A stretch of 64,000 bases of DNA from Candidatus Nanoarchaeia archaeon (GTDB lineage: Archaea > Nanobdellota > Nanobdellia > SCGC-AAA011-G17 > JAFCDX01): contig JAQUOT010000001.1 in the NCBI GenBank assembly GCA_028716945.1, forward strand, positions 402,471-466,470. The letters run 5' to 3'. The stretch's first letter is position 1. Each line of letters opens with the position of its first letter. A program made the position numbers and the translations under genes. Under the pieces are notes generated by a model that did not search any database, was not told the DNA's origin, and saw nothing but the letters and a program-made list of their open reading frames with translations. Shown piece by piece: positions 6,013-49,016 of this stretch.

Positions 6013-6014
6013 TT

Positions 6015-6233: not shown

Positions 6234-6254
6234 TTTCTAACTAAAAATAGGTTA

Positions 6255-6262: not shown

Positions 6263-6272
6263 TTTTTGTAAA

Positions 6273-6372: not shown

Positions 6373-6425
6373 ATGAGAAAACTTCTTTATTCTAAATATT
6401 TAAAGATTGCTCTTTATAGAATTCT

Positions 6426-6656: not shown

Positions 6657-6661
6657 TAATT

Positions 6662-7360: not shown

Positions 7361-7362
7361 TT

Positions 7363-22360: not shown

Positions 22361-23923
22361 ATGAAAAAACTAAATTTATTGTTGGGAATTTTGTTCCTAG
22401 TTATATTAAGTACAAGTGTTTTTAGTTTAAGTTTACCTTCAACAGTAACCTTAGATGAAAAACAAGCAGGTGAAACTGCAACAGGTTCTCTTATAATTAC
22501 AAATAATGGTGCAAACACTGTTACATTATCAGTTTATTTACAAGATTCTTCTGATTTCGAAGATGAAGACGAAGATGCTATAAGCGTTTCTTTTAATCCT
22601 GCTTCAGGTATATCAATACCTGCAACCCAAAGCAAGACAATTGCAATTTCAGCCATTATAGATGATAATGTGGATTCAGCAACTTATAAAGGAAACATAG
22701 TAATATTTGATGGTACTACTACAAGTACAGTTAAATTAGCTGTTCCAGTAGCTCCAGAAATATGTGAATCTGGAAAACAAGGAGATTTAAAAATTTCTGA
22801 TTATTCAATAAAGAAAAACCCAGATACTGATGCAGATGATGAATTTTACTTAGGTAATGATATTGAAGTAGAAATTGATGTTGATAATAATGGAGACGAT
22901 GAAGTTACTGATATCGTTGTTGAAGCTATATTATATGATTTAACAGAAGGAGAAGATGTTGCTTCAGCACAAGCAGATAAATTTGATTTACAAGACGGTA
23001 AAGATGAAACAGGAATTAAATTAACCTTAAAAGTTCCTACAGATGCAGATCCTGATGACACTTACGCAGTTTACTTTAAAGCATCCGAAGATGGTTCTGA
23101 AGAAGATAACTGTCAATATGAAAGTCAAGAAGTTGATGTTAAAACAAAAGATTATGATATGTCTATTGATTTACAAAGTATAAATCCTTCAACTGTTAAT
23201 TGTGGTTCAAATGTTGATTTCAATGTATTAGTTAAAAATACAGGAAGCAAAGATGAATCAAATGTTTATGTTAAAGTACAAGATAGTACAAAATATTTAC
23301 AAGGAACTACAGCTTCATTCGATTTAGATTCAGATGAAGATACTTCCAAAATAATTACAATAGCAGTTCCTAATAATATTACAGCAGGATCTTACACTTT
23401 TGAAGCATTCATATATTTCCACGATGGAGAATATAAATCAGATTTAAACACAGCAAACAAAATAACTGTTTCATGTGAAGTGCCAAACAAAGCACCAGTA
23501 GCAAATGCTGGTCAAGATCAAACTGTTTCAGCTAATACTTTAGTTATATTAGATGGATCACAAAGTTCAGATGCAGATGGAAATCAATTAACTTATAAAT
23601 GGGAACAAATAGGTGGAATGCAAACTCAACTAACAAATGCAAATGCAAACATAGCAACATTTACTCCAACAAGTTCAGGAGCATACTTATTCAAATTAAC
23701 TGTTAACGACGGTAAATTAGAAAGTTCAGATAATATTTTAATTACTGTTAGTGGTTCAACTTTACCAACAGGAAATGTTGTATATGAAGAAGATTCAATC
23801 TTCGGAAGCATGAGAGATGCTTTACCCACAATTGCTTGGGTATTAGGAATTATAATTTTATTACTAGGAATAACTTTCTTAGTTAAAATGATTTTCTTCA
23901 ATAGAAAATACGAACCATTATAA
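22361..23923 (+). CDS. secreted acidic cell-surface protein with PKD domain and C-terminal TM anchor
   Basis: Signal peptide MKKLNLLLGILFLVILSTSVFS. PKD motif PVANAGQDQTVSANTLVILDGSQSSDADGNQLTYKWEQ ... FKLTVNDG. C-terminal AWVLGIIILLLGITFLVKMIFFNRK. Confidence 0.7.
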   Translation: MKKLNLLLGILFLVILSTSVFSLSLPSTVTLDEKQAGETATGSLIITNNGANTVTLSVYLQDSSDFEDEDEDAISVSFNPASGISIPATQSKTIAISAIIDDNVDSATYKGNIVIFDGTTTSTVKLAVPVAPEICESGKQGDLKISDYSIKKNPDTDADDEFYLGNDIEVEIDVDNNGDDEVTDIVVEAILYDLTEGEDVASAQADKFDLQDGKDETGIKLTLKVPTDADPDDTYAVYFKASEDGSEEDNCQYESQEVDVKTKDYDMSIDLQSINPSTVNCGSNVDFNVLVKNTGSKDESNVYVKVQDSTKYLQGTTASFDLDSDEDTSKIITIAVPNNITAGSYTFEAFIYFHDGEYKSDLNTANKITVSCEVPNKAPVANAGQDQTVSANTLVILDGSQSSDADGNQLTYKWEQIGGMQTQLTNANANIATFTPTSSGAYLFKLTVNDGKLESSDNILITVSGSTLPTGNVVYEEDSIFGSMRDALPTIAWVLGIIILLLGITFLVKMIFFNRKYEPL

Positions 23924-23943: not shown

Positions 23944-24522
23944 ATGAAACCAAGAAGAGAATTAACTAAACAAGAACAACTAGATTTAAATTTATTTCTT
24001 TCAAAAGCAGTTCCATTGTGTGCACAAGGTAAGCCACACATATTTCAAGCTAGTAAGGGATCGATGATGTTTATTAAAGAATCAAAAGATATCAAGACAA
24101 AGGAAAAAGGCCCTCTCGTACTTCCTTCAGGAAATTTAATTATTGTTGATGAATACTGGGGAAATATAGAAAAACTTACCGGACAATATATAATTTGTTT
24201 AGAAGATATAGATAATCCCATTTTTAAATTAGATTACCGTTCAGAAGCAATGACAAGGGGTCTGGAAAAGAATGATAAAGGAGAATTTTTACATAAAAAT
24301 AATATTAAAGAATGTATGCATGCTGCTTTATCTCAAGAAGGAAAAAAATATCCTTGGAGAGGTCCCGAATCTTTTAATTATAAGGGATATAATTATGTTC
24401 ATATTCCATCATGTACTAATATGTATTACTTGGATGGTAGAGAGTATGTTATTGAATCTAGGACCGGAGAACAACTACTTAGAACAAAATATGTTGCATC
24501 AATAATAAACCCTTTTGCATAA
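23944..24522 (+). CDS. hypothetical protein
   Basis: 192 aa ORF with no family-level motif. Confidence 0.4.
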   Translation: MKPRRELTKQEQLDLNLFLSKAVPLCAQGKPHIFQASKGSMMFIKESKDIKTKEKGPLVLPSGNLIIVDEYWGNIEKLTGQYIICLEDIDNPIFKLDYRSEAMTRGLEKNDKGEFLHKNNIKECMHAALSQEGKKYPWRGPESFNYKGYNYVHIPSCTNMYYLDGREYVIESRTGEQLLRTKYVASIINPFA

Positions 24523-24533
24523 ATTCTAAAAAG

Positions 24534-24618
24534 AGGGCGCAGCAGGACTCGAACCTGCGGATATTCGGGTACTACAACATTTTGCAGCCGAACGCGTTAG
24601 CCGCTTCGCCATACGCCC
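24534..24618 (-). tRNA. tRNA-Cys(GCA) with canonical 12-nt intron after position 37
   Basis: - Acceptor GGGCGUA/UGCGCCC with discriminator U73.
- D-arm GCGA-AGCGGCUA-ACGC.
- Anticodon stem UUCGG/CCGAA with loop CUGCAA[AAUGUUGUAGUA]C.
- T-arm GCAGG-UUCGAGU-CCUGC. Confidence 0.85.
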
Positions 24619-25434: not shown

Positions 25435-28341
25435 ATGGTTAATAAACTATTAAAGATAGATAAAAAGTGGCAGAAAGCTTGGGAAGATAAAAAGGCTTTC
25501 AAAGTAAAAGAAGATCCTAAAAAAAAGAAGTATTATGTTCTTGAGATGTATCCTTATCCTTCAGCTTCTTTCTTACATATGGGACATGTGAGAAATTATA
25601 CTATTGGAGATATTTATGCTAGATTCAAAAGAATGCAAGGTTTTAATATACTTTATCCAATGGGGTATGATTCATTTGGATTGCCTGCTGAAACTGCAGC
25701 AAAAAAAGAAGGAATACACCCAAAAAAATATGCAGAAAGTTCTATAAAAAAAATAATGGAATATCAGAAAGCTTTAGGCAATAGTTATGATTGGAGCAGG
25801 ATTCTTTCAAGTCACGATGTTAATTATTACAAATGGAACCAATATTTTTTCTTGAAATTATTTGAAAAAGGTTTAACTTATAGAAAAAATGCACCTGTAA
25901 ATTGGTGTGAAAAATGTCAATCAGTTCTTGCTAACGAAGAATCTGAAGGAGGAAAATGTTGGAGATGTGACAGCGAAGTTGTACAAAAACCTCTTGAACA
26001 GTGGTTCTTTAAGATAACTGCATATGCTGACAGACTTCTTAATGATTTAAATAAAATAGATTGGCCAGAAAAAATAAAATTAATGCAGAAAAATTGGATA
26101 GGTAAATCTCATGGAACAGAAATTTTATTTAAGATTAATAATGAAAATTGGCCAATATTTACAACAAGAGCAGATACAATTTATGGAGTAACTTTTATGG
26201 TTATCTCTGCACAACATCCAAAATTATTTGATTTAGTTACAAAAGAACAGAAAAAAGACGTTGATTCTTTCTTAAAGAAATTAAAAACAGTTTCTAAAGA
26301 AGAACTTGAAGAATTAGAAAAAGAAGGAGTATTTACTGGAAGTTATGCAATTAATCCTATAACCAAAGAAAAAGTTCCTGTTTACGCTGGAAATTTTGTT
26401 ATTGCAGATTATGGTTCTGGAATGGTTATGGCAGTTCCTGCTCATGATCAAAGAGATTTTGAATTTGCAAAAAAATATAATATTCCAATTAAAATTGTTA
26501 TTATACCTGAGAAAGAGTTAATTAAAGAAGACGACATGATAAATCGAATGTTCTTAGAAATAAAAAAAATAAATGAATTGATGCAAAAAAATAAGATAAA
26601 AGTTTGGTTCAATGGAACTTTTGGTGTAATCGGGCACTCTAAGAAGATATTCATTAAACCAAGAGATGTTGATTTTGGAGTTTTAGAAAAAGATTATGAA
26701 AAAGCAAAAAAGCTTCTTGTTGGTTTGGGTTACTCAAAAATAGAAGAGAAAGAAAATGAAAAATTTAAATATACATCTTATAAATATGAGGATTTATTTC
26801 TCGAGGTAGGAACATTTGATCACGATTTGGGTAATGAAGTAGCAAATATTAAAGGAATTACTTATCCAATCCCAAATGCAAGGTGGTTAGCTGAATGTTA
26901 TGAGATTACTAAAAACAAAGAGCGTCGACAGGGAAGAGGAGACGACTTTTCTGCTTTATTATTGGGATTACTTTCAGGAAGTATGAAAGAAGCATTTACA
27001 GGTAATGGAACACTAATAAATTCTAAAGAATTCAATGGTACAAATAATTTAGATGCAATAGAAGAAATTACAAAACATCTTGAAAAATTAAAATTAGGTA
27101 AAAAAGTTACTCAATACAAACTAAGAGATTGGATGATTTCTCGTCAGAGGTACTGGGGGACACCAATTCCAATAATTTATTGTGATAAATGTGGAGTAGT
27201 TCCTGTTCCAGAAAAAGATTTACCAGTAACTTTACCTGAAAAAGTTAAATTCGATACAGGAAATCCTTTATCAACAAATAAAGAATTTGTAAATGTTAAA
27301 TGCCCAAAATGTAAAGGTCCTGGAAGAAGAGAAACAGATACTATGGGCGGATTTGTAGATTCTTCATGGTATTTCATAAGATTCTGCGACAATACAAATA
27401 AAAAACAACCTTTTGATAAGAAAAAAGCAAATTATTGGATGCCTGTTGATCAATATATTGGTGGAGCAGAGCATGCAGTTATGCATCTTATGTATGCTAG
27501 ATTCTTTGTAAAAGCACTAAAAGATTTAGGTATAGTTAGTTTTGATGAACCATTTTCAAAACTTTTCAACCAAGGAATTGTTTACAAAGATGGTGCAAAA
27601 ATGTCAAAGAGCAAAGGAAATGTTGTTTATCAAACAGAAATTTCAGAAAAATATGGTATTGATACTGCAAGATTATTCTTAATGTCAATTGCTGCTCCAG
27701 ATGCAGTTATGGAATGGAGAGATGAAGGTGTTGAAAGTAGTTTTAAATTCATAAATAAAGTTATAACTTATTATGAAAACGTAAAATTAGGAAAATCTTC
27801 TGAAAAAGTAGAATCAAAATTAAATAAAACCATAAAAGAAGTTACCGAAGATATAGAATCTTTTAATTATAATATTGCAATAATAAAAATAAGAAAATTA
27901 TTTGAATCTTTTAATAAAGAAGAATCTAAAAATACTTTAGAACCATTCTTGAAATTATTCCATCCTTTCTGTCCACATATCACAGAAGAACTCTGGAGTA
28001 AATTAAAAAATAAAGAATTTTTGAGCTTGGAAGATTGGCCAAAAGCAGATTTGAAAAAAATCAATGAAAAATTCGAACAAGAAGATAAATTAATAGATAA
28101 TTTAACAGAAGATATTAATAATGTTGTTAGAATAATAAAAGAAAAAGGCAATGAACCTAAAAAAGTATTTATTTATACAATTCCAAAAGAAAAAGAAATT
28201 TATTCTAATGAAATAGAATCAATTAAACTAAGAACCACTTTGGATGTAGAAGTATTTGCAGTAAATGATCCTAAGAAACATGATCCTCAGAATAAAGCCA
28301 TTAAATCAAAACCAGGAAAACCAGCATTATATTTGGAATAA
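25435..28341 (+). CDS. leuS: leucyl-tRNA synthetase (archaeal type)
   Basis: HIGH motif (HMGHVRNYTIGD); KMSKS present; CP1 editing domain; 968 aa. Confidence 0.9.
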   Translation: MVNKLLKIDKKWQKAWEDKKAFKVKEDPKKKKYYVLEMYPYPSASFLHMGHVRNYTIGDIYARFKRMQGFNILYPMGYDSFGLPAETAAKKEGIHPKKYAESSIKKIMEYQKALGNSYDWSRILSSHDVNYYKWNQYFFLKLFEKGLTYRKNAPVNWCEKCQSVLANEESEGGKCWRCDSEVVQKPLEQWFFKITAYADRLLNDLNKIDWPEKIKLMQKNWIGKSHGTEILFKINNENWPIFTTRADTIYGVTFMVISAQHPKLFDLVTKEQKKDVDSFLKKLKTVSKEELEELEKEGVFTGSYAINPITKEKVPVYAGNFVIADYGSGMVMAVPAHDQRDFEFAKKYNIPIKIVIIPEKELIKEDDMINRMFLEIKKINELMQKNKIKVWFNGTFGVIGHSKKIFIKPRDVDFGVLEKDYEKAKKLLVGLGYSKIEEKENEKFKYTSYKYEDLFLEVGTFDHDLGNEVANIKGITYPIPNARWLAECYEITKNKERRQGRGDDFSALLLGLLSGSMKEAFTGNGTLINSKEFNGTNNLDAIEEITKHLEKLKLGKKVTQYKLRDWMISRQRYWGTPIPIIYCDKCGVVPVPEKDLPVTLPEKVKFDTGNPLSTNKEFVNVKCPKCKGPGRRETDTMGGFVDSSWYFIRFCDNTNKKQPFDKKKANYWMPVDQYIGGAEHAVMHLMYARFFVKALKDLGIVSFDEPFSKLFNQGIVYKDGAKMSKSKGNVVYQTEISEKYGIDTARLFLMSIAAPDAVMEWRDEGVESSFKFINKVITYYENVKLGKSSEKVESKLNKTIKEVTEDIESFNYNIAIIKIRKLFESFNKEESKNTLEPFLKLFHPFCPHITEELWSKLKNKEFLSLEDWPKADLKKINEKFEQEDKLIDNLTEDINNVVRIIKEKGNEPKKVFIYTIPKEKEIYSNEIESIKLRTTLDVEVFAVNDPKKHDPQNKAIKSKPGKPALYLE

Positions 28342-28399: not shown

Positions 28400-28978
28400 A
28401 TGGCAGAAGATAAATTTTTATTGGTGTCTTTAGGAGAAGAGAAATCAAAGAAGCTTGCTCAAGTGATTTCTTCAGATACAGCAAGAAAGATAATTAATTT
28501 ATTAGCAGAAAAGGATTTTACTGAAACCGAAATAGCTGAAAGATTAAATTTACCTTTAACAACTGCCCATTATAATACACAACAACTAGAAGATGCAGGT
28601 TTGATAGAATCAAAAGGATTTAAATGGTCTGAGAAAGGTAAGAAAATAAAATATTATCAGTTAGTTAACAAATTAATTATAGTAACACCTAAATCTACAA
28701 AAAACTTTTCAGATATATTAAAGGGAATATTGCCTGTAACTTTAATTGGAGCTTTAGGTTCTTTAGGAATTTACCTTTATGAGAAATCACAATTAATTAC
28801 AACTAACTTGGATTCTACTGGTGGACAAATGTTAAAGTCAGTAACAGAAGAAGCAGTTTTAGCAGCACCAGCAGTTGTACAACAATCAATGATGAATTAT
28901 GGTCTATACTTTTTTATTGGAGTCATATTCACAACATTTTTATATATAGGAATACAATATATTAAGAGGAAAAAATGA
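28400..28978 (+). CDS. ArsR-family wHTH regulator with C-terminal transmembrane anchor
   Basis: HTH region FTETEIAERLNLPLTTAHYNTQQLEDAGLIE; C-terminal TM helices LPVTLIGALGSLGIYLY and GLYFFIGVIFTTFLYI. Confidence 0.5.
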   Translation: MAEDKFLLVSLGEEKSKKLAQVISSDTARKIINLLAEKDFTETEIAERLNLPLTTAHYNTQQLEDAGLIESKGFKWSEKGKKIKYYQLVNKLIIVTPKSTKNFSDILKGILPVTLIGALGSLGIYLYEKSQLITTNLDSTGGQMLKSVTEEAVLAAPAVVQQSMMNYGLYFFIGVIFTTFLYIGIQYIKRKK

Positions 28979-30243
28979 AAATATTAAATCTATTTTTGGT
29001 TTTATTATTGGTATTACCTATTAGTTTAGCAGCAGAAGAAATGGCACAAACTAAGATTATGGCTTATCCTCCATACCAAGCAAATACTGGATTGAACCAA
29101 TATTATACTGTTGATTTTGATGAAGAAGGAGATGCAACAGTTGCTGCTAAGATAGAAATACAAAATTTTGATAAAGAAGGTGTATCTCAATTACAATTTG
29201 AAATTCCTGGAACAAATGTAAGAATGATTAATTTAGTTCAAGAATATTTCTTATATACCGAAGATTGTTCAAATTGGCAGAAAGTTTGTAATTCTATGGG
29301 TTGCTTAGATCAGTGTACTTCTTATTATCCAAGGCAAATATGGCCTCCGCAATATGAATCTATAAATTATGAAACAGATACTTTATCTAATTCTGTTTTA
29401 TATAGGATGAAACTTCCTCATAAAATAAATCAGAGTGAAACCAGTTCAATTATTGTATATTACAAAACAAGATCTTATACACAAAAAAATTTAGGTATAT
29501 TTGATTTTAATTTTGAAACCATAAAATTAAATTATGATACAAATAGTGTAAATGTTGGAGTTTCTGTAAGTGGAGATTTACATTTAAAAGGAACTAGCCA
29601 AAACGTAAATTATTTACCTGAATTTGAAAGAGCTGCACAAGACTTTTCTATGGGAAAAGTAGGAGAAATGGCAAATGTAGTTGGATATATTGGTCAAGGT
29701 TCTTATTCTAGAAATGCAAATTCTTTAGATCCAATGGAAAGTTTTAGTTTAACTGGAAGTTATGCAAAATCTTGGTTAAATTTATACAGGTTTAGAATAT
29801 TTATTGGATTATTAATTGCAATAGGTTTAATTTTCGGAGCTTATTATGCATTAAAAAAATTAGAAGTATTTGAACAAAAAAATGCAAAAAAATGTATTTG
29901 GTCTGGAATAGCAAGTTCATTAGCTTTAATTATATTATGGACATTAACTTCTCTATTCTTAAATTTAATAAATAAATATGCTGCTTATAATGTTCAATCT
30001 ATGATATTTTTAATGGTTTTATTGTTAATTGGAATAATATCTTTATTTGTAATGTTTGGACCAATAGTCTACTTTGGCTTAAAATATGGTCTTAAAGAAG
30101 CAGTAATCGCTACTATATCTTTTTTAATCTCTTTGGTGATATTTGGTATTATTGCAACAATAATTCTTGTTTTATTGATGCCTTCTAATTCTGGACCAAT
30201 TTATAGATATGCTATGGAAACCGCAAAAGCGGTAATGGCTTAA
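28975..30243 (+). CDS. membrane protein: signal peptide, Cys-containing extracytoplasmic domain, four C-terminal TM helices
   Basis: Signal peptide MKILNLFLVLLLVLPISLAAE; Cys cluster CSNWQKVCNSMGCLDQC; TM helices from about residue 265; translationally coupled to the upstream regulator (ATGA overlap). Confidence 0.5.
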   Translation: MKILNLFLVLLLVLPISLAAEEMAQTKIMAYPPYQANTGLNQYYTVDFDEEGDATVAAKIEIQNFDKEGVSQLQFEIPGTNVRMINLVQEYFLYTEDCSNWQKVCNSMGCLDQCTSYYPRQIWPPQYESINYETDTLSNSVLYRMKLPHKINQSETSSIIVYYKTRSYTQKNLGIFDFNFETIKLNYDTNSVNVGVSVSGDLHLKGTSQNVNYLPEFERAAQDFSMGKVGEMANVVGYIGQGSYSRNANSLDPMESFSLTGSYAKSWLNLYRFRIFIGLLIAIGLIFGAYYALKKLEVFEQKNAKKCIWSGIASSLALIILWTLTSLFLNLINKYAAYNVQSMIFLMVLLLIGIISLFVMFGPIVYFGLKYGLKEAVIATISFLISLVIFGIIATIILVLLMPSNSGPIYRYAMETAKAVMA

Positions 30244-30314
30244 TTGTTACCACTCTAAAATAATATCAATAGAAAAGTTTATAAGCAATTATCCGCAATT
30301 CTTTTTAACTTAAA

Positions 30315-31151
30315 ATGGTAAAGAAATTTTTTGTAGGAGATAGACAGATATATCTTAATAGATTTGACAAAATTAAGGATATTTTTAAAGAGAATTTGGA
30401 TGTTTTTTATGATGCTTGTAGAGACATTAAGAATAATAAATGGCTTTCTATAGCTTGTGTTTTATTAACTGTTGAAAGTTTTCATTTAACAAATAATATT
30501 TTAGAAAAGTATCATACCAAAAAACAAAATCTTGAAGCAAAGGTTATGGTACAACCTATACCAAAATATGAACCTCAACCAGTTCCTATTCCTGTAGTTA
30601 AACCAGTTGAAACTGTAGAAAAATTTGTTCTTCCAACAGAAGTTGTAAAATCTATGGATTATTGGGCTTCATCTTATAATAATGATAAACTTCTGACAGA
30701 AGCTATCGCTTTTAAGGAAAGTGGAGGAGATATATATAAAGTTAGTAAAGATGGAGCAGTAGGAGTAATGCAAATAATGCCTTGTACTGCTTTAGATGTT
30801 GGACTTGATATTCCAACTAGCGAATATGAAGTTATAAAAGGGGTTTGTTATAACACTCCTACTTGTGTTAAAGAAAACGAACAAAATTGTGATTATCAAA
30901 ATGATCAGAGATTTAGTTTAAATTATAATATTCGTGCAGGAATGTATTACCAACAATATTTAAGAAAACTGCCTTATATTGGAAAAGACAGAGAAAAAAT
31001 GTTGGCTGCTTATAATTATGGACCGGGACATATAAACGAACTTTGTGATGGTTTAAGTTATAAACAATGTGAACCAAATTTACCTATAGAAACTAAAAAT
31101 TATGTAAATAAAGTCCTTGAAATATATAATTATAAAAGAAATAAAAGTTAA
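30315..31151 (+). CDS. membrane-anchored SLT-domain lytic transglycosylase-like protein
   Basis: N-terminal TM WLSIACVLLTVESF. SLT catalytic block AFKESGGDIYKVSKDGAVGVMQIMPCTALDVGL (ES ... GxMQxMPxTA). Downstream AAYNYGPGHI (AYNxG). Confidence 0.65.
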   Translation: MVKKFFVGDRQIYLNRFDKIKDIFKENLDVFYDACRDIKNNKWLSIACVLLTVESFHLTNNILEKYHTKKQNLEAKVMVQPIPKYEPQPVPIPVVKPVETVEKFVLPTEVVKSMDYWASSYNNDKLLTEAIAFKESGGDIYKVSKDGAVGVMQIMPCTALDVGLDIPTSEYEVIKGVCYNTPTCVKENEQNCDYQNDQRFSLNYNIRAGMYYQQYLRKLPYIGKDREKMLAAYNYGPGHINELCDGLSYKQCEPNLPIETKNYVNKVLEIYNYKRNKS

Positions 31152-31717
31152 TAACTAAAGAAACTGATTTTTGCATTCTTCATTTTTCTATAAAAAATAT
31201 ATTCTGGTTTATTTTCTTTAGATTTAATAAACTCTTTTGATAAACCTTCCCATACAAAGAACCACCCTGCCGGTTCAAATATTATAAACATTAATTTTTC
31301 TAAAAACGAGGGTCCGGATGAATGTAAAAATGTTACAGATATTAACATTAAAATAATTCCAGCAATAAACCATATTATTCCTTCTTTTTTAACTTCTTTT
31401 ATTTCATTTTCTTTTTCTTTAAAGTGGTGATCAAAATGTTCTTTTAATCTTCTTCTTATTTTTGCTTCGTGTTCTAAGCTTCTTTTTTGTTTGGGTATTA
31501 ATAATCTTAATTCTAATCCTTCTTCTGGTTTGTCTATAGAAGCTCTTTTACATTCTGTTAAAAAATCAGTTGATAACGATCTTTCTGAATAAGCTCTTGG
31601 ATCAAACCCAGAAAATAAATCACCATAAGAATCAAGAACTAGACTAATATTTCCTTCCCTTAGCGTATATTCATAAACTTTTTCTGTTTTTTTAACAAAT
31701 TTACCTCTTTTTTTCAT
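31148..31717 (-). CDS. hypothetical membrane protein
   Basis: 189 aa; one central TM (IIWFIAGIILMLISVTFL) plus a hydrophobic C-terminal segment. Confidence 0.4.
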   Translation of the reverse strand: MKKRGKFVKKTEKVYEYTLREGNISLVLDSYGDLFSGFDPRAYSERSLSTDFLTECKRASIDKPEEGLELRLLIPKQKRSLEHEAKIRRRLKEHFDHHFKEKENEIKEVKKEGIIWFIAGIILMLISVTFLHSSGPSFLEKLMFIIFEPAGWFFVWEGLSKEFIKSKENKPEYIFYRKMKNAKISFFSY

Positions 31718-31763: not shown

Positions 31764-33902
31764 TTATTCTAAAATAGCTTTTATTCTTCTAATTCCTGCA
31801 GCTATTGATTCTTCCTTAATAATTTTGAACTTTCCTAATTCTTTTGTATTTTTAACATGAGGACCCATACATATTTCTTTTGAATAGTCTCCAATTGAAT
31901 ATACAGAAACCTTTTCAGGATATTTAGCTCCAAATTCATGTTGTGCTCCAGATTTTATTGCTCTGTCTAGAGGCATTTCTTCTCTTATTATATCTAATTT
32001 TTTATTAATTACTTTATTTACTTCATCTTCTACTTTTTTAACTTCTTCATCTGTTAGTTTTCTATCAAAGTTAAAATCAAATCTTAATCTTTCTGGAGTA
32101 ATATTAGAACCTTTTTGTTTTATTTCTTTGGATAAAATTCTTCTTAATGCTTCGTTCAATAGATGTGTAGCAGTATGTAATTTTGCAGTTATTTCAGATG
32201 CTTCAGATAATCCGCCTTTGAATTTCTTTTCAGCTCCGACTCTGGATAATTCTTGATGTTTTTCAAACTCTTTATTAAAACCTTTTTCATCTACATCAAT
32301 TCCTTTTTCTTTTGCTAATTCTTGAACCATTTCTAATGGAAAACCATAACTTTGGAATAATAAGAAGGCATCTTTACCAGAAATATTTTTATCAGATATT
32401 TTTTCAAATTGTTTGATTCCTTTTTCAAGTGTTTCTCTAAATCTTACTTCTTCGTTTTCAAGTTCTTTCATAATGAAATTATATTTTTGCTTTAATTCAG
32501 GATAATCTTCTTTGTACATTTCAATTACAATTTTTGCAATAGGTTTTGTTAAATTATCTTTAATTCCTAATAAATTTCCATGTCTTATTGCTCTTCTGAT
32601 AAATCTTCTTAAAATATATCCTTGATCTACATTGCTTGGAAGAACATCTCTTTCATCACCTAAAATAAAAGTTGCTGCTCTCATATGATCTGAAATAATT
32701 CTAACGCTTTTTTCATTTTCTTTTGAAATTGATTTTAGTTTAGCTAATTTTTTAATTTCTTCAATTAAAGGTAAGAAAAGTTCTGTTTCATAAACATTTT
32801 TTTTACCTTCCAACATAGCAGAAGTTCTTTCTACTCCCATTCCTGTATCAACATTCTTTTGTTTAAGAGGAATGAAAGCAATTAAGTGATCTTCTATAAC
32901 TTTTTTTATTGATTTGATGTCGGTGTAATGTTTAGATAAGATGCCTAATTTTGCTGCAGTTTCTATATTTTTTTCATCATGATCAAAATAAATAACTTCT
33001 TCTGGTTGAAGATCAAATGTTTTTAAGAGGGTATTAAAATACTCAGGGTTATCTTTTTTTATTCCTTTTTCTTCTAATGAAAAGGCTTGCCAATTTGTAT
33101 CTAATTCTGGATTATAATTCTGCACTAATTTAAGCCCTTTTTCTTTAAATTTATTAACAACCAATATACTATGACTATTAAAATTATTAATAGTATCTAA
33201 TAATTCCTTATTAAGGTTAAACTTATCATCATAAAGGCAATACATTCCATCAACTAATATAAGTCTCTTATCTTTTTTGTACCCCATGAAAACATCATTC
33301 CAAATTTCTATGAATTTTCCACAAGAACATCCAGGTTTGCAATTTTTAGAACATTTTTCTTTTCCTGTATCTATAAACATTTCAGTACAAGGACCACAAG
33401 GACCTGTTGTTCCTGCAGGACCCCACCAATTATCTACCTTTGGTAGGAAATATATTCTTTCTTTTGGTATTCCTAAAGATTGCCAAGTTTTTGCACTTTC
33501 TTCATCTTTTGGAGCATCTTTATCTCCTGCGAATACTGTAACAGATAACAAATTTTTATCAAATTTTAAGACTTTAGTTAAAAATTCAAAGCTATATTCA
33601 ATTGCTTCTTTTTTAAAATAATCTCCTAAAGACCAATTTCCTAACATTTCAAAGAAAGTTAAATGAGCAGGATCACCTACAGAATCAATATCTCCTGTTC
33701 TAATACATTTTTGTACATCAGCAAGTCTTTTACCTAAAGGATGCTTTTGACCCATTAAAAAAGGGACTAATGGATGCATACCTGCCGTTGTAAATAACAC
33801 TGTAGGATCAAATTCTGGTATCAAAGAAGCTGATTTTATAATAGCATGACCTTTAGATTTAAAGAATTCTAGATATTTTTGCTTTAATTCATGTGCTTTC
33901 AT
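31764..33902 (-). CDS. alaS: alanyl-tRNA synthetase, short form lacking the C-Ala domain, with an insertion of about 130 aa in the catalytic domain
   Basis: FTTAGMHPLVPF, GTTGPCGPCTEMF, KNVDTGMGVERT and a C-terminal editing domain ending HVKNTKELGKFKIIKEE. The inserted segment KRLILVDGMYCLYDD ... VIYFDHDEKNIETAAKLGI lies between FMGY and PLKQKNVDTGMG. Confidence 0.85.
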   Translation of the reverse strand: MKAHELKQKYLEFFKSKGHAIIKSASLIPEFDPTVLFTTAGMHPLVPFLMGQKHPLGKRLADVQKCIRTGDIDSVGDPAHLTFFEMLGNWSLGDYFKKEAIEYSFEFLTKVLKFDKNLLSVTVFAGDKDAPKDEESAKTWQSLGIPKERIYFLPKVDNWWGPAGTTGPCGPCTEMFIDTGKEKCSKNCKPGCSCGKFIEIWNDVFMGYKKDKRLILVDGMYCLYDDKFNLNKELLDTINNFNSHSILVVNKFKEKGLKLVQNYNPELDTNWQAFSLEEKGIKKDNPEYFNTLLKTFDLQPEEVIYFDHDEKNIETAAKLGILSKHYTDIKSIKKVIEDHLIAFIPLKQKNVDTGMGVERTSAMLEGKKNVYETELFLPLIEEIKKLAKLKSISKENEKSVRIISDHMRAATFILGDERDVLPSNVDQGYILRRFIRRAIRHGNLLGIKDNLTKPIAKIVIEMYKEDYPELKQKYNFIMKELENEEVRFRETLEKGIKQFEKISDKNISGKDAFLLFQSYGFPLEMVQELAKEKGIDVDEKGFNKEFEKHQELSRVGAEKKFKGGLSEASEITAKLHTATHLLNEALRRILSKEIKQKGSNITPERLRFDFNFDRKLTDEEVKKVEDEVNKVINKKLDIIREEMPLDRAIKSGAQHEFGAKYPEKVSVYSIGDYSKEICMGPHVKNTKELGKFKIIKEESIAAGIRRIKAILE

Positions 33903-41365: not shown

Positions 41366-42403
41366 ATGATTCCTACTTCACAATTAAAAGAAATTAAAGA
41401 TTATCTTGTAAATGCTGAAAATCCGTTAATTTTCTTTGATGATGATCCTGATGGATTATGTTCATATTTGTTAATGAAGCAACTAAATGATAATGCTAAA
41501 GGTATAGTAATAAAAAGTTCTCCTGTTTTAGATGTGCAATACTTAAAAAAGATAGAAGAATTAAGTCCAGATATAGTTTTTGTTTTAGATAAGCCATTAA
41601 TAAGCCAGGAATTTATTGATAATGTTCATGTTCCTATAATTTGGGTAGACCATCATCCTTTAGTTCAAAGAAAAGGAGTTAATTATTATAATCCTAGGAT
41701 AAAAGATGAAAAAGATAATTCTCCTACTACTTATTTAGTTTACAAGGCTCTTAATAATAATTTATGGATTGCTACAGTCGGTTCTATTGCAGATTGGTAT
41801 ATTCCAGATTTCTTGCCAGAATTTAAAAAACAATTTCCAGGTTTATTAGAAGATCAAAAAAAACCAGAAGATATTCTATTTAATTCTAAACTTGGAACTT
41901 TAGTAAAATTATTTTCTTTTAATTTGAAAGGAAAGACTTCAGATGTAAGAAAAAATATAGCTATCTTATCTAAGATAGAAACTCCTTATGAAATATTAAA
42001 TCAGGAAACTTCTAAAGGAAAATTATTATATAAAAATTATACAAAGATTAATAAAGCATATGAAGAATTATTAGCAAAAGCAATAGAATCCATGAAATAT
42101 CAAAAAGATAAAAGAATATTATTATTTATTTACCCTAGTGCAAAAACAAGTTTTACAACAGAATTATCAAATGAATTACTTTATAAATATCCTGATAGGT
42201 TAATTATTATAGGAAGAGAAAAAGGCGATGAAATAAAAATGAGTTTAAGATCAAGCAAATTAATTTTACCTGGAATAATTGAAAAAGCCTTGGTAAATGT
42301 AAAAGGATATGGTGGTGGCCATGATTATGCTTGTGGTTCGAGTGTTGCTAAAGAAGATTTTCCAATATTCATAGATAACATAAAAAATCAGATAGGTGAG
42401 TAA
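41366..42403 (+). CDS. DHH-family phosphoesterase (NrnA/RecJ-like) with DHHA1 domain
   Basis: Motif I FFDDDPDGLCS, DHH motif IWVDHHP, DHHA1 GGGHDYACGS; 345 aa. Confidence 0.65.
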   Translation: MIPTSQLKEIKDYLVNAENPLIFFDDDPDGLCSYLLMKQLNDNAKGIVIKSSPVLDVQYLKKIEELSPDIVFVLDKPLISQEFIDNVHVPIIWVDHHPLVQRKGVNYYNPRIKDEKDNSPTTYLVYKALNNNLWIATVGSIADWYIPDFLPEFKKQFPGLLEDQKKPEDILFNSKLGTLVKLFSFNLKGKTSDVRKNIAILSKIETPYEILNQETSKGKLLYKNYTKINKAYEELLAKAIESMKYQKDKRILLFIYPSAKTSFTTELSNELLYKYPDRLIIIGREKGDEIKMSLRSSKLILPGIIEKALVNVKGYGGGHDYACGSSVAKEDFPIFIDNIKNQIGE

Positions 42404-44342
42404 AATAAAAAATAAATTAATACTTTTCATAATTTCTGTAATAATTCTATCTCAATTTACTTCAGCAATAAATATAGAAGAGCCAAGTTCTTATTCTTGG
42501 TTTAGAATGTACCTAACTTTATCTACGAATTTATCTTTAGATCCAACTAAAGATGATGCAAAAGTTGATGCCATCATTTCTGAATTAAAAATATATCCTA
42601 AAAATACAGAATTGCAAAGTGTTTCAAATTTAAACATAATTTCAAATCCAACAGCAGCAACTTCTACAAATAATGCAATAACTTACGAATGGGAAAAGCC
42701 TGAATCTAAAATATTAAACTTAGGTTTTACTTCAGAGGTAGTATCTGAAAATAAAATAACTCCTATCCAAACAAAATTAGAATTTCCATCTACATCAGCA
42801 GATCCTCAAGCAGTTTCTTATTTAGAAGCTACTGAACATATTGATATAAATGAAAATATAAGAAATAAAGCAAATGAACTTGCTGCAGGAGAAGATGATG
42901 TTTATGTTGTTGTTTTTAAAATAGCAGAATATGTAAGAACTAATGTAAATTATAATCTTACAACTTTAACAGAAAACGTTGTACAAAAATCTTCTTGGGT
43001 ATATGAAAATAAACAAGGAGTTTGTGATGAAATTACAAGTTTATTTATTTCTATGTTAAGATCAATAAAAATACCTGCAAAATTCGTTGAAGGGGTTGCA
43101 TATACAAATACTTTAGGAACTTGGGGAAATCACGGATGGGCAGAAGTTTATCTTCATGGATATGGATGGGTTCCATTTGATGTAACTTATGGACAATATG
43201 GTTTTGTTGATGCTACTCACATTAGACTTGGAGAATCAAGTGATTCTTCTATGCCTTCTTTGACTATTACTGGAAGAACTTATAACACAGAAATTAATAC
43301 ACAAGAACTTGTTTTAAATACAGAATTACTTGCTCGTGGAGAAAAATTACCTAAACTAGAATTAATTAAGATAGAACCCTTAACTAATCAAGTTGGTCCA
43401 GGTAGTTATGTTCCTATAAAAGTAGAACTAGAAAATTTACAATCTTATTATGTTCCAGTTCAATTAAGAATTACAAAAGCGCCAGAATTAACAGAATCTA
43501 ATATAAAAACAGTTTTATTAAAACCTTTACAGAAAAAAACAGTATTTTGGATAGTAAAAATTCCAAATGATTTAGAAAATAATTATATTTATTCTACTTT
43601 AATAGAAGTTATAGATTCTTTTGGATTAGTTGCTTCAGAAAAAATAAATTATGCAGATGAATATGATACTTTTACTCAAGAACAAGCAAATACCTTATTA
43701 GCTAAAAATTCAGAAAAAGAAAGTTTGATTTATTCAGAAAAATTAAGTCTAAACTGTAAGCCCGGAAAAAATTATTATTTTGATTATGAAAAAGCAGAGC
43801 TAACTTGTATTGTTCTTAATACAGGAAATGTGGTTTTGAATGATTTACAAGTTTGTTTAAACCAAGATTGCAAGACTTTTGGATTGACAATAGCAGACTC
43901 TAAAAATTTAGTATTTACAGATTTGTCTAGTAATGAAGAAATAAAAATAACTGCAAAAAATAACGTCATTGATGTTGCTAGTTTTGTTACTATAAAACAA
44001 TTGAATGATCCCAATCTAAAAATATCTAATTTAAATTTTCCAGATTTAATACTATACAAACAACCTACTAATTTGACTTTTTTACTAAGTGTGGATACTC
44101 CTGTTAAAAATATTATTTTCAAATTAAATGGAGAAGAATTTTTTAAATTGGATAATTTTGTAAAACAAGAAAATAGAATTTTTATATTTACAGGAAAAAA
44201 ATTATATGGTCCAACTTATAATAATTTATCAATAACTTATGAAGATGAAAATGGGCATTCATATCAAACAAGTAAATCCTTTTTAGTTAATGTAAAAAAA
44301 GTTCCATTTTATGCAAGAATTTTATATTGGTTAGGATTCTAA
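42396..44342 (+). CDS. secreted transglutaminase-like (Cys protease fold) domain protein with beta-rich C-terminal region
   Basis: Signal/TM LILFIISVIILSQFTSA. Transglutaminase core NKQGVCDEITSLFISMLRSIKIPAKFVEG ... GNHGWAEVYLHGYGWVPFDVT (Cys-His-Asp). Confidence 0.6.
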   Translation: MSKIKNKLILFIISVIILSQFTSAINIEEPSSYSWFRMYLTLSTNLSLDPTKDDAKVDAIISELKIYPKNTELQSVSNLNIISNPTAATSTNNAITYEWEKPESKILNLGFTSEVVSENKITPIQTKLEFPSTSADPQAVSYLEATEHIDINENIRNKANELAAGEDDVYVVVFKIAEYVRTNVNYNLTTLTENVVQKSSWVYENKQGVCDEITSLFISMLRSIKIPAKFVEGVAYTNTLGTWGNHGWAEVYLHGYGWVPFDVTYGQYGFVDATHIRLGESSDSSMPSLTITGRTYNTEINTQELVLNTELLARGEKLPKLELIKIEPLTNQVGPGSYVPIKVELENLQSYYVPVQLRITKAPELTESNIKTVLLKPLQKKTVFWIVKIPNDLENNYIYSTLIEVIDSFGLVASEKINYADEYDTFTQEQANTLLAKNSEKESLIYSEKLSLNCKPGKNYYFDYEKAELTCIVLNTGNVVLNDLQVCLNQDCKTFGLTIADSKNLVFTDLSSNEEIKITAKNNVIDVASFVTIKQLNDPNLKISNLNFPDLILYKQPTNLTFLLSVDTPVKNIIFKLNGEEFFKLDNFVKQENRIFIFTGKKLYGPTYNNLSITYEDENGHSYQTSKSFLVNVKKVPFYARILYWLGF

Positions 44343-45811: not shown

Positions 45812-45897
45812 TGGGACTGCCCGGATTTGAACCGGGGTCGCGAGGTTTTTAGCATAGTCCCTAACCTCGAATCATGACCAAGCTGGACCACAATCCC
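45812..45897 (-). tRNA. tRNA-Pro-like paralog with enlarged 19-nt anticodon loop (probable intron); anticodon unresolved (A at nominal position 34)
   Basis: Acceptor GGGAUUG/CAGUCCC-A. D-arm, anticodon stem (CGAGG/CCUCG), variable loop (CGAC) and T-arm are identical to the tRNA-Pro at 6273..6372. The loop is UUAGGGACUAUGCUAAAAA. The gene lies immediately upstream of proS. Confidence 0.5.
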
Positions 45898-48107: not shown

Positions 48108-49016
48108 ATGGTAAAAAGAGGATTAATAAACACAGTTTTAATGGTTTTATTATTTTTAATAACTATCTCTTCTGTTAAAGCAATGGGAATTGGAATGTGT
48201 TTAGAAGCACATATTACAGATATAAGTCCAACTTCAATAGATGTAGGAGAAGAATTTACAGTAGGAATTTTAATAGATAATTGTGGTTATACTGTTCCTC
48301 CTTATGTTACTTTTGAATTAAGAGAAGTAAGCCCTTACATGCAAGTTCTTGAACCCTTAAAACAACAAATAGAAAAAGTAGGTTATGCAACAAGTGATAG
48401 ATTTTTACTTTTCCATATAAAACCTACAGATGATGTTGTTCCAGGAACTTACGTTTTCAAATATAGATTAACTTATGGAAGTTTAAATGCAACAATAAAT
48501 AATGATGGAGAATTTTCTGTTAAAATAATAGGGGACAAAGCCAAATTAAATATCGCTTCAATGAAAACAAAACCAACTTTACCTAAAGAAGGAGAAGAAG
48601 TTGAATTAACTTTAAGAGTAGAAAACTATGGAGAGGGAAGTGCAAATTCAATTAAAATAATATTAGATCATCCTTTTGAAGGAATAAAAGAATCTTTTTT
48701 AGGTACTTTAGATTCTAATGAAGATGGTCCTGCTGTATTTACTTTTATTGCTCCAAAAGAAGGAGAATATAAAATTCCAGTATTAATTACCTATAAAGAT
48801 GATTTAGGTAGTCATGAAGTTAAGTCAGAAGTTAATGTAACTATTTTAAATAAACCAACAAATATTTTTAGAATATTATTAATAATCCTTACAGCAGGAT
48901 TAATAGGATATATAATTTATTATTTAATACAAATTGCTGAGAAAAAAGAAATTATAATAAAACAATTAATGAATGGAAATAATATTAAAAAAGAAAGAAC
49001 TTCTAAAAAGAAATAA
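48108..49016 (+). CDS. secreted cell-surface protein with beta-sandwich repeats and C-terminal TM anchor
   Basis: Signal peptide VLMVLLFLITISSVKA; CARDB/COG1361-like segment VELTLRVENYGEGSANSIKI; C-terminal TM ILLIILTAGLIGYIIYYLI with a basic tail. Confidence 0.5.
   Translation: MVKRGLINTVLMVLLFLITISSVKAMGIGMCLEAHITDISPTSIDVGEEFTVGILIDNCGYTVPPYVTFELREVSPYMQVLEPLKQQIEKVGYATSDRFLLFHIKPTDDVVPGTYVFKYRLTYGSLNATINNDGEFSVKIIGDKAKLNIASMKTKPTLPKEGEEVELTLRVENYGEGSANSIKIILDHPFEGIKESFLGTLDSNEDGPAVFTFIAPKEGEYKIPVLITYKDDLGSHEVKSEVNVTILNKPTNIFRILLIILTAGLIGYIIYYLIQIAEKKEIIIKQLMNGNNIKKERTSKKK

Follow-up and report, generated by a model that had tools for sequence, protein, structure and literature searches.

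A predicted family-1 lytic transglycosylase encoded by a DPANN archaeon and apparent replacement of its catalytic domain between strains

The SLT gene and its surroundings

The DNA analyzed here, referred to throughout as the window, is a stretch of 64,000 nucleotides from a contig assigned to a Candidatus Nanoarchaeia archaeon. An ORF at positions 30315..31151 of the forward strand encodes an SLT-domain protein of 278 amino acids and is complete from its ATG start through its stop codon. This ORF contains both strings that had been quoted in an earlier, sequence-only reading of the region, namely AFKESGGDIYKVSKDGAVGVMQIMPCTA and AAYNYGPGHI, and the identical protein is already named [quoted passage not shown] by NCBI. 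Its neighbors are genes for LeuRS, a winged-HTH protein with a transmembrane helix, a 422-amino acid protein, a 189-amino acid protein and AlaRS. That the encoding organism is an archaeon of the DPANN type, as had been proposed, was corroborated by this NCBI name and by the archaeal marker genes carried in the window (aIF5A, Orc1/Cdc6, P0, L1, L11, Spt5, Dph2, ZPR1, prefoldin, TFE and L15e). The tRNA genes of the window measure 85–100 nt and probably hold introns.

The two genes upstream of the SLT gene were found to be much as the sequence-only reading had described them. The first encodes a winged-HTH protein with a C-terminal transmembrane helix (28400..28978), and the second encodes the 422-amino acid protein, which has a hydrophobic N-terminal leader followed by several transmembrane helices (28975..30243). 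The two genes overlap by 4 nt and form a unit of their own. Because the host is archaeal, promoter assignment relied on the position of TATA boxes and not on a sigma-70 promoter scan. A TATA-box-like TTTATAA, preceded by a purine-rich GAAAAG, is located at 30278..30284 (+), 37 nt upstream of the SLT start codon. Upstream of 62 window genes, TTTAWA boxes peak at −30..−26 (24 genes) and at −40..−36 (8 genes); the box of the SLT gene falls in the second zone and probably serves as the gene's own promoter.

The same earlier reading had joined the HTH protein, the 422-amino acid membrane protein and the SLT protein into a three-gene surface-interaction module, and this grouping was refuted by comparison with related loci. 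In the syntenic relative L090, the HTH gene, a 407-amino acid counterpart and AlaRS are all present with no SLT gene between them, more distant SLT relatives have quite different neighbors, and the SLT gene has the TATA-like box described above. The gene that travels with SLT is not the HTH/422-amino acid pair but the convergent 189-amino acid gene (31148..31717, −), which overlaps the SLT stop codon by 4 nt. Both genes were present together in all four loci that carry SLT, and both are absent from L090; this co-occurrence hints at a possible functional link between them. The 189-amino acid protein consists of a soluble N-terminal part followed by two C-terminal transmembrane helices. It had no credible match among Pfam, NCBIfam, PHROGs or PADLOC profiles, and its single-sequence structure model (pLDDT 67) was too poor for a fold search.

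Catalytic domain and predicted architecture of the protein

For the catalytic domain, profile searches, an alignment of 36 sequences and a structure model were combined. The Pfam SLT profile (PF01464), also on record as a precomputed hit for this protein, matched the 278-amino acid sequence with E = 2.4e-14 and a score of 53.4 bits (gathering cut-off 21.3), and the C-terminal 179 residues (residues 100–278; 30612..31148, +) make up the SLT/GH23 family-1 lytic transglycosylase catalytic domain. Within it, E135 of the E-S motif (codon at 30717..30719, +) is predicted to act as the catalytic general acid/base. Columns E135, G150, Q153, T158, Y233 and G236 were invariant across the 36 sequences, and S136, N234, E259, T260 and Y263 were near-invariant; the motifs G150-V-M-Q153, A232-Y-N-Y-G236 and E259-T260...Y263 were each invariant or at least 90% conserved in the same alignment. 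A profile comparison with Escherichia coli Slt70 gave E = 1.9e-33, and the invariant Glu column fell on Slt70 E478.

The structure model was of high confidence across residues 100–278 (pLDDT 90–98) and placed E135 at the end of helix 125–136, as expected for the first long helix of a family-1 domain. The fold was goose-lysozyme-like and all-alpha, nearest to solved lytic transglycosylases, and the best 50 Foldseek matches were all family-1 lytic transglycosylases; neither a closer similarity to GH23 chitinases or goose-type lysozymes nor a second catalytic acidic residue was found. The profile score, the invariance of E135 and its coincidence with Slt70 E478 uphold the earlier assignment of the ORF to the SLT-type lytic transglycosylases with a catalytic Glu. 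The protein is accordingly described here as a predicted small family-1 lytic transglycosylase with an SLT domain (CAZy GH23) and its catalytic Glu in place. Because GH23 also includes chitinases and lysozymes that share the fold, its specificity for murein is only putative.

Comparison with bacterial enzymes showed several differences. Relative to Slt70, Pseudomonas aeruginosa Slt and Neisseria LtgA (family 1A), with which it shares 22–27% identity, the protein has no superhelical U and L domains, carries an additional Cys-pair insert of ~24 residues as well as a second Cys pair before the ET motif, and belongs to a host presumed to have no sacculus to remodel. Scores against MltE/EmtA, EtgA, VirB1-type proteins and Borrelia BB0259 were far under the family cut-offs (25.7 bits for NF047373, the BB0259 family, where 234 is required; E = 0.073 for EtgA by phmmer), and the protein lacks a lipoprotein signal. 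Genes of a secretion, pilus or flagellar machine were not found beside the SLT gene, and no ATPase or platform genes were recognized among the ORFs of the window, which were read by eye and of which a subset was scanned with profiles.

The insert lies between the GxMQxMPxTA and DQRF motifs (residues 167–192; 30813..30890, +) and contains the Cys pair C184/C192. Aligned with Slt70 and P. aeruginosa Slt, it faces a gap of ~24 residues, and canonical bacterial SLT domains are without it. Spacer length at this position is bimodal among homologues, the long spacer with at least two Cys being present in 37 retrieved homologues. The second pair, C244/C252, was placed by alignment at 31044..31070 (+). 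Both pairs are conserved throughout a DPANN-borne subgroup that is marked by the insert and the two pairs, and to which the SLT protein belongs; both may form disulfides.

The region preceding the catalytic domain comprises three parts. Residues 1–40 (30315..30434, +) form a charged N-terminal region, M[VI]KKF[DF]VG[DE]RQIY..., that is conserved in all four known alleles and specific to their small family; an exhaustive protein search found no match to it in any protein outside that family. It was modeled as a β-hairpin (residues 4–13) and a helix (residues 16–36) at pLDDT 58–76 and is presumed to be cytoplasmic. It is followed by the sole hydrophobic stretch of the protein, residues 43–63 (WLSIACVLLTVESFHLTNNIL; 30441..30503, +), a putative signal anchor that belongs to a single long helix (residues 42–77) in the model. 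The third part, residues 78–107 (30546..30635, +; MVQPIPKYEPQPVPIPVVKPVET...), is a proline-rich disordered linker that differs in length and sequence among the alleles, is modeled without secondary structure and has pLDDT values below 50 at residues 77–87.

The hydrophobicity of residues 43–63 was weak on both scales used. Kyte–Doolittle windows of 19–21 residues reached at best ~1.2–1.3, under the usual 1.6, and the additive Hessa-scale sum was +7.2 kcal/mol, where cytoplasmic control proteins encoded in the window gave +6.5 to +10.6 and real transmembrane helices of neighboring proteins gave −5.5 to +0.2. The matching segment in three homologues was better, yet marginal (Kyte–Doolittle 1.74–1.87; Hessa +2.7 to +2.8), and a strongly hydrophobic leader is present at the N terminus of most other subgroup members. 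The N terminus of the 278-amino acid protein itself carries neither a Sec or Tat signal nor a classical signal peptide. Of the N-terminal transmembrane helix that had been claimed, a hydrophobic segment could be confirmed, whereas a convincing transmembrane helix could not, and the predicted membrane anchor of this allele is marginal. The two conserved Cys pairs, the proline-rich disordered linker and the hydrophobic segment at the level of the family would favor export.

Archaeal origin and divergence between strains

A bacterial or phage transfer had been offered as one possible source of the gene, and the searches returned no recognizable donor. Best matches among phages, plasmids and IMG/VR were 28–37% identical (≤34.5% for phages and ≤37% for IMG/VR), and the composition of the gene (GC 28.1%, GC3 12.5%) resembles that of housekeeping genes. 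The nearest relatives having a name or a readable context are all archaeal, those closest among the ones of known origin being other DPANN proteins, and have the derived Cys-pair insert in common; genes adjoining the SLT relatives include those for Alba, FEN-1, CDP-archaeol synthase, RtcB, archease and OapB/C. Composition and relatives together indicate a gene native to the archaeal chromosome and not recently acquired.

The family to which the protein belongs is small, with four known alleles among ~15 billion proteins. A single-sequence, word-indexed protein search gave three matches, and further relatives came from exhaustive HMMER and profile searches; patterns derived from the family-specific N terminus, applied to GTDB species genomes, re-found only the known relative. 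Some of the SLT relatives are large, for example P0031 (2,051 amino acids) and P0115 (2,579 amino acids).

SLT domains are overwhelmingly borne by bacteria or phages, and the flanking LeuRS and AlaRS appear bacterial-like by eye, both of which would fit an assembly or binning error that had placed DNA of bacterial or phage origin in an archaeal contig. Against this, the gene lies among archaeal genes on a contig of uniformly 27% GC, the relatives sit beside archaeal genes such as those listed above, and the junctions are repeated in three other assemblies as well as in three further diverged loci; the five-gene context around SLT was assembled identically from three other sequencing runs. The probability that such an artifact explains the gene is close to nil, and contamination or a chimera was rejected on the uniform GC and on the recurrence of the context in other assemblies and loci.

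Within the syntenic block, the SLT protein was 53% identical between orthologues, whereas 13 of the 14 remaining pairs compared gave 77–97.5%, and nucleotide identity was ~50–79% (31% over the insert) against 87–97%. SLT is the most diverged gene by a wide margin in a block that is otherwise conserved. The loci L092 and L093, on two near-identical contigs, allowed the divergence to be placed within the gene. Their flanks differ by 14 mismatches in 1119 nt, whereas the catalytic domain differs by 145 mismatches and 75 gap columns in 533 columns (Fisher p = 1e-68 versus the flanks), with putative breakpoints at nt 486–558 and 1065–1098. Identity is 98% over the first 114 codons and falls to 56% over the domain. 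Values of dS were 0.016 for the N-terminal part, 0.009–0.016 for the flanks and 1.09 for the domain, a value near 1 being close to saturation; the synonymous divergence of the domain is ~70–100 times that of the flanks. The dN/dS of the domain was 0.29. The catalytic Glu is present in all four alleles, and the motifs are kept except for G150C and M152T in L092. The adjacent 189-amino acid gene is 98.9% identical between L092 and L093.

These comparisons suggest that the catalytic domain alone was replaced by recombination with a divergent allele and that it is still under purifying selection. The SLT locus appears to be a divergence hot spot and to behave like a cell-cell interaction gene. The population signal comes from four alleles in total, and the source of three of these is a short metagenomic contig. 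In populations of Nanoarchaeota, the greatest variability has been found in genes for cell-surface proteins (PMC6142677). Two other sources of variation were considered. A diversity-generating retroelement was rejected, given that the divergence extends over all 520 nt of the domain, includes indels and affects synonymous sites equally, unlike a short adenine-specific variable region. A paralogue that could have served as donor in gene conversion was looked for in the 64 kb, and no further SLT-like sequence was found there.

The arrangement of a conserved N-terminal part and a recombinationally replaced C-terminal catalytic domain is shared with polymorphic toxins (Rhs, CDI and T6SS effectors). 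It differs from these in that the incoming domain is of the same fold and family and not a different toxin, and in that the adjacent 189-amino acid gene does not co-vary with the domain, so that a cognate immunity gene is lacking.

Proposed function and its implications

SLT/GH23 genes in DPANN archaea have been described by Castelle 2021 (PMC8204110) and Vigneron 2022 (PMC9723730), with the earliest observations credited there to Rinke 2013 and Castelle 2015. Bacterial peptidoglycan as the substrate of DPANN SLT proteins has likewise been published (PMC8204110, PMC9723730, PMC10936187), a reading with which none of the present observations conflicts, and experiments on these proteins are still called for (PMC10936187). 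The protein described here resembles the published ones in having a murein-less DPANN encoder and bacterial peptidoglycan as the proposed substrate. The published proteins, however, have been stressed as large and extracellular, up to 3,000 amino acids in length, whereas the present one is a single-domain protein of 278 amino acids. It has a private N-terminal region of 40 residues and only a weak hydrophobic segment, and so departs from the large multi-domain form with a clear export signal.

The best overall explanation, and one that we regard as reasonably probable, is that the gene encodes an exported, weakly anchored DPANN lytic transglycosylase that cleaves bacterial peptidoglycan. The SLT gene would be transcribed alone, outside any module with the HTH and 422-amino acid genes. 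The protein would reside outside the cytoplasmic membrane, held by the weakly hydrophobic residues 43–63, and the proline-rich linker would set the domain off from the membrane. The domain would then cleave MurNAc-β-1,4-GlcNAc bonds in bacterial peptidoglycan, with E135 protonating the glycosidic oxygen and subsequently activating the C6-OH of MurNAc to produce 1,6-anhydro-MurNAc ends. DPANN archaea are not known to make murein, and the archaeon itself is presumed to have none. For an archaeon without its own murein, the target would be the wall, or wall debris, of bacteria to which it attaches, on which it preys or from which it feeds.

Phage proteins offer partial parallels to such a mode of action. 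In phage SLT proteins (T7 gp16, tape-measure proteins, "lytic tail" proteins and phiKZ gp144), an SLT domain also breaches the wall of another cell from the outside, but identity to the present protein is at most 37%, and the SLT gene here lies in a conserved chromosomal block. SAR endolysins have a weakly hydrophobic, releasable signal anchor, which residues 43–63 may resemble; the segment here differs in that it follows a 40-residue N-terminal region and is not at the extreme N terminus. A phage lysis cassette was not recognized around the gene, as there are no phage genes in the syntenic block and the 189-amino acid neighbor is without a match in PHROGs.

The same enzyme could be put to a use other than attachment to, or predation on, a living bacterial partner: it might scavenge the peptidoglycan of dead cells, which would supply amino sugars and amino acids, or it might serve as a weapon against competing bacteria. 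Peptidoglycan of dead bacteria has been proposed to feed Pacearchaeota (PMC11537232), archaea are known to make peptidoglycan hydrolases that kill bacteria (PMC12352652), and no feature of the window links the SLT gene to an attachment apparatus. An enzyme tethered by a short linker is, however, ill-suited to reaching distant targets or acting on a diffusible substrate, the replacement of the domain at the level of strains fits an arms race with living cells better than it fits the digestion of debris, and neither a muropeptide transporter nor a downstream catabolic gene was found nearby; we regard these uses as unlikely, if plausible. A substrate other than murein seems improbable to us: this would be a GlcNAc-type β-1,4 glycan, candidates being chitin and chito-oligosaccharides or else a glycan displayed on the surface of either an archaeal host or the archaeon.

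It is also conceivable that the protein is not exported at all and is a cytoplasmic remnant of an old bacterial transfer, with its function lost or non-catalytic, or that it is released only by lysis. In this allele the hydrophobic segment scores no higher than segments of cytoplasmic proteins, a classical signal peptide is absent, dN/dS (0.4–0.5) is above that of the neighbors, and the L092 allele is without the otherwise invariant G150. On the other hand, dN/dS is well under 1 in all comparisons, the catalytic Glu and the motifs persist across four alleles despite differences at roughly half of the residues, and the two Cys pairs are conserved subgroup-wide. The corresponding segments of the homologues are more hydrophobic, and strong N-terminal leaders are present in most other subgroup members. 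With the evidence on both sides considered, we hold a non-exported protein to be very improbable.

As an annotation, the gene is ordinary, being correctly named in NCBI and belonging to an idea set out in several papers. What is new here is the divergence hot spot apparent at the SLT locus and the catalytic-domain-only replacement seen between two near-identical contigs. A more speculative reading, which we put forward tentatively and consider rather unlikely, is that the SLT domain acts as a recombination-shuffled specificity cassette, whereby strains of this nanoarchaeal lineage swap divergent yet functional alleles that track changes in the walls of their bacterial partners or prey, such as those in stem peptides or O-acetylation, or else track the inhibitors that bacteria direct at lytic transglycosylases. 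If this were true, the 278-amino acid protein would set which bacteria the archaeon can exploit and would be deployed by way of a weak, possibly releasable anchor and the co-inherited 189-amino acid membrane protein.

The question of whether some DPANN archaea live on bacteria, beyond archaeal hosts, is one for which the case rests almost entirely on genes of this kind. The protein would make a practical test case, being small and single-domain with a high-confidence model, and E135Q would serve as a catalytic-dead control. If the pattern survives the addition of more genomes, domain-only replacement together with purifying selection would be an independent sign of a gene in use under changing outside pressure.

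Identity of the gene and its archaeal host

An SLT-type lytic transglycosylase had been proposed from the sequence alone, and profile searches bore this out. The ORF (30315..31151, + strand, ATG start, 278 amino acids) contains AFKESGGDIYKVSKDGAVGVMQIMPCTA and AAYNYGPGHI where they had been placed and was matched by Pfam PF01464 (SLT) at E = 2.4e-14 and 53.4 bits (gathering score 21.3), which is far beyond chance. NCBIfam gave weak partial matches to the lytic transglycosylase equivalogs BB0259, Slt70, MltF, EmtA and MltC; because all of these fell far below their cut-offs, this is an SLT-domain protein, yet the orthologue of no named bacterial enzyme. NCBI lists an identical protein, located on a 535,886-bp contig, under the name 'MAG: lytic transglycosylase domain-containing protein [Candidatus Nanoarchaeia archaeon]'.

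An AlphaFold model with a 36-sequence alignment as input (mean pLDDT 85) predicts a β-hairpin (residues 4–13), a helix (16–36), one long helix (42–77), a proline-rich disordered linker (78–107) and a compact helical domain (108–277, pLDDT 90–98). Among the 50 best matches of a Foldseek search of the PDB there was no protein other than a family-1 lytic transglycosylase (Slt, Slt70, LtgA, MltC, MltE, MltF and Cj0843), and the predicted fold places the SLT domain firmly among these enzymes. Every family-1 motif (ES, GxMQ, AYNxG and ET..Y) is present. Across the 36 aligned sequences E135, G150, Q153, T158, Y233 and G236 are invariant, and S136, S144, G147, A148, P156, A159, N205, G209, A231, N234, E259, T260 and Y263 show conservation of 90% or more. 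When the profile of this alignment was compared with E. coli Slt70 (E = 1.9e-33), the invariant Glu column, E135, fell on E478, the catalytic residue established from Slt70 structures; the assignment of the catalytic Glu was upheld.

The host is an archaeon, as had been assumed. The window encodes aIF5A with its hypusine motif, Orc1/Cdc6, ribosomal proteins P0, L1, L11 and L15e, archaeal Spt5, Dph2, a ZPR1-type zinc finger, prefoldin β and TFE, as well as FtsZ, SRP54 and FtsY. Contamination or chimerism of the SLT locus was rejected on the basis of these archaeal genes, a uniform GC content (23–31%), the NCBI record and recovery of the five-gene SLT context in assemblies of three further sequencing runs. 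Of the four tRNA genes, three (6273..6372, 24533..24618 and 45812..45897, all − strand) are 85–100 nt long, the length expected of intron-bearing archaeal tRNAs, so that introns are probable; the first of them escaped ARAGORN, which left the anticodon of the second unnamed.

Gene neighbourhood and origin

The sequence-only reading had tentatively joined the SLT gene to the two genes 5′ of it, the HTH-TM gene (28400..28978) and that of a 422-amino acid protein (28975..30243), in a three-gene surface module, which was refuted. These two genes overlap by 4 nt and form one unit; the SLT gene, which starts 71 nt further on, has a TTTATAA of its own at −37 (TATA-like boxes lie at −30..−26 in 24 of the 62 genes of the window and at −40..−36 in 8). 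Since the whole 20-kb region of locus L004 is collinear with the window, conservation there is uninformative on the three genes specifically. In L090 (GCA_975850245.1), a syntenic locus at a greater distance, the genes run HTH (191 amino acids), a 407-amino acid protein, AlaRS, TFE, M50 and L15e; the 407-amino acid gene stops 3 nt short of AlaRS, and the locus has neither an SLT gene nor a 189-amino acid gene, so that the upstream pair is kept without SLT. Distant SLT relatives (loci L007, L008 and L009) have unrelated neighbours.

The gene that accompanies SLT is the convergent 189-amino acid gene (31148..31717, − strand). The two overlap by 4 nt at the SLT stop in each of the four loci, and L090 lacks both. 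The 189-amino acid product had no credible family match in four profile libraries, and its structure model was poor. The adjacent AlaRS (31764..33902, − strand, 712 amino acids) carries an in-frame insertion of ~135 amino acids (residues ~211–345, nt ~32870–33300) inside the catalytic domain that the orthologues in L004 (585 amino acids) and L090 (586 amino acids) lack; the only match to it was a faint one to HAD hydrolases (PF00702, E = 0.0098).

When 1.84 billion representatives were searched exhaustively with HMMER, the result was 7,125 SLT proteins at E ≤ 1e-3 and only the query's own cluster at E ≤ 1e-30, the next match being at 1.2e-27. The immediate family consists of four known alleles: that of the window, P0002 (loci L004/L006), P0003 (locus L093) and P0165 (locus L092). 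The next-nearest relatives span 178–5,647 amino acids, and those that are named all come from archaeal MAGs (P0006 and P0010, 'Nanoarchaeota archaeon'; P0015 and P0018, 'archaeon'). Two relatives without a name, one in L007 (with Alba, FEN-1, aEF-1β, CDP-archaeol synthase, PTH2 and TruD) and one in L008 and L009 (with RtcB, archease and OapB/C), sit unmistakably among archaeal genes. The L007 homologue, P0056, closes a series of nine closely spaced ORFs in the same direction (328..7460, + strand) without Pfam matches, including ORFs of 44 and 41 amino acids, and this series may be an undescribed surface apparatus ending in a wall-cutting enzyme.

Two features are shared by the DPANN relatives: an insert of ~24–40 residues that carries a Cys pair and separates the GxMQxMPxTA motif from the DERF motif, and another Cys pair ahead of the ET motif. 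Neither occurs in Slt70, P. aeruginosa Slt or short bacterial SLT domains. Spacer length is bimodal (30–49 residues in 115 sequences, 60–99 in 63). The recognisable bacterial or phage donor that had been envisaged did not emerge: no close donor was found in 50,697 phage genomes (34.5% identity at best, E = 7e-8), 72,556 plasmids (best ~33%) or IMG/VR (at most 37%), and in GC (28.1%) and GC3 (12.5%) the SLT gene does not differ from housekeeping genes. Ultimately the domain surely came from bacteria; these comparisons point to long residence in DPANN and disfavour a recent transfer.

Putative membrane anchor and export

The N-terminal transmembrane helix was not confirmed as described. No N-terminal signal peptide was found in the SLT protein, and its only hydrophobic stretch is WLSIACVLLTVESFHLTNNIL (residues 43–63). 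Hydropathy was assessed by the best 19-residue Kyte–Doolittle window and by an additive Hessa sum over 19 residues, with internal controls that rank in the expected order. The window allele reached ~1.2–1.3 on the Kyte–Doolittle scale (best 19–21-residue windows) and +7.2 kcal/mol, within the range of the cytoplasmic controls FtsZ, Orc1, SRP54, LeuRS and GlyRS (+6.5 to +10.6 kcal/mol); the equivalent segment of three homologues gave 1.74–1.87 and +2.7 to +2.8 kcal/mol, and true transmembrane helices of neighbouring proteins −5.5 to +0.2 kcal/mol. Because this segment is weak, we infer export from other features, namely the Cys pairs C184/C192 and C244/C252, kept across the whole aligned SLT subgroup, the Pro-rich linker and the type of enzyme. 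The segment may be a weak, 'SAR-like' anchor that can be released.

In many of the DPANN SLT proteins nearest to it (P0004, P0008, P0009, P0011, P0020, P0021, P0026, P0027 and P0029), a few basic residues at the N-terminus, often with K/R-G, are followed by a long hydrophobic run, e.g. MKRKGQLSAGTLTLIGLIVGVVIVIIFF. Such N-termini, absent from the window protein, resemble archaeal class III (type IV pilin-like) signal peptides, which hints that pilin-like proteins display some of the DPANN SLT domains. Also encoded in the window are a 648-amino acid protein (42396..44342, + strand) that combines a hydrophobic leader at its N-terminus with a transglutaminase-like core (PF01841, E = 6e-25) and has a homologue in the syntenic part of L090, and several leader-bearing CARDB- or PKD-domain proteins (22361..23923, 48108..49016 and 52353..53402).

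Divergence of the catalytic domain and proposed function

Orthologues in the window and L004 share 77–97.5% amino acid identity (LeuRS, 97.5%; L15e, 96.9%; AlaRS, 94%; 422-amino acid protein, 88.6%; 189-amino acid protein, 83%; HTH-TM, 77%), with the exception of SLT (53%) and the DUF5680 protein (43%), the only one about as diverged. The latter (23944..24522, + strand; L004 3164..4719) lies among neighbours at ~90%, and in L004 it is separated from LeuRS by an extra LAGLIDADG gene, which is missing from the window. Nucleotide identity is 87–97% in the flanks and roughly 50–79%, with indels, in the SLT gene, falling to 31% in one comparison window over the SLT insert. Nei–Gojobori estimates were dN 0.33–0.35, dS 0.66–0.84 and dN/dS 0.40–0.53 for SLT, against 0.01–0.135, 0.14–0.50 and 0.08–0.27 for its neighbours. 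A second identity trough (28750..28920, + strand; 62%, flanks ~90%) covers the linker and transmembrane part of the membrane-anchored winged-HTH protein, in the C-terminal part of the HTH-TM gene. LeuRS (25435..28341, + strand) has an unusually low dS (0.14; neighbours 0.37–0.50); with HMGH...GLPAE it looks bacterial-type by eye, as does AlaRS with FTTAGM.

Domain replacement is plainest between the L092 and L093 loci, which are 97–100% identical upstream, over SLT codons 1–114 and over the 189-amino acid gene, but 60–75% identical, with indels, across exactly the catalytic domain (145 mismatches and 75 gap columns in 533 columns, against 14 mismatches in 1,119 flanking positions; Fisher p = 1e-68). 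The breakpoints fall at nt 486–558 and 1065–1098 of L092, the second at the stop codon. The dS is 1.09 in the domain (dN/dS 0.29) and 0.009–0.016 in the flanks. The divergence data as a whole comprise only four alleles, three of them from short metagenomic contigs, and a dS near 1 approaches saturation. The pattern means that a divergent SLT-domain allele was imported by recombination, because the synonymous jump is too large for local selection. No paralogous SLT donor was found within the window.

ESGGD, Q, PxTA, DQRF, AAYxxGP and ETxxYV are kept in all four alleles. That of L092 (207..1070, P0165) is the sole one with Cys at the otherwise invariant G150 and has Thr for M152 in the GxMQ motif; its insert is longer and more Cys-rich, and its Pfam score is faint. 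Activity or specificity may be altered in this allele. Raised variation in single-pass surface proteins has been described in Nanoarchaeota populations (PMC6142677).

The SLT gene is a native archaeal gene with a complete, conserved family-1 domain under purifying selection. The domain would sit outside the membrane on a ~45-residue stalk and linker and would cut the MurNAc-β-1,4-GlcNAc bonds of bacterial peptidoglycan by the standard family-1 mechanism, in which a single Glu acts as acid and then as base and attack by the MurNAc C6-OH yields 1,6-anhydro-MurNAc. Pseudomurein was ruled out chemically as a substrate, because it is β-1,3-linked and contains talosaminuronic acid, which lacks a C6-OH; chitin-like glycans are a possible but unlikely substrate. 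The enzyme may serve in attachment to or feeding on a living bacterial partner, in killing competitors or in scavenging wall debris.

SLT/GH23 domains have repeatedly been reported in Woesearchaeota, Pacearchaeota and Nanoarchaeota with the same interpretation (Castelle et al. 2021, PMC8204110, citing Rinke 2013 and Castelle 2015; Vigneron et al. 2022, PMC9723730; PMC10936187; PMC11537232), and other archaeal peptidoglycan hydrolases kill bacteria (PMC12352652); none of these published accounts contains experiments on an SLT protein from DPANN archaea. The core claim is not new, and the gene is already annotated. The published proteins are 'large extracellular' ones, whereas that of the window is small, with a private N-terminal region and a weak anchor, and its family differs from them in strain-level replacement of the catalytic domain. 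This recombination pattern is a small, testable addition to the known picture of DPANN SLT proteins, and it favours an interaction of the enzyme with living, varying targets.
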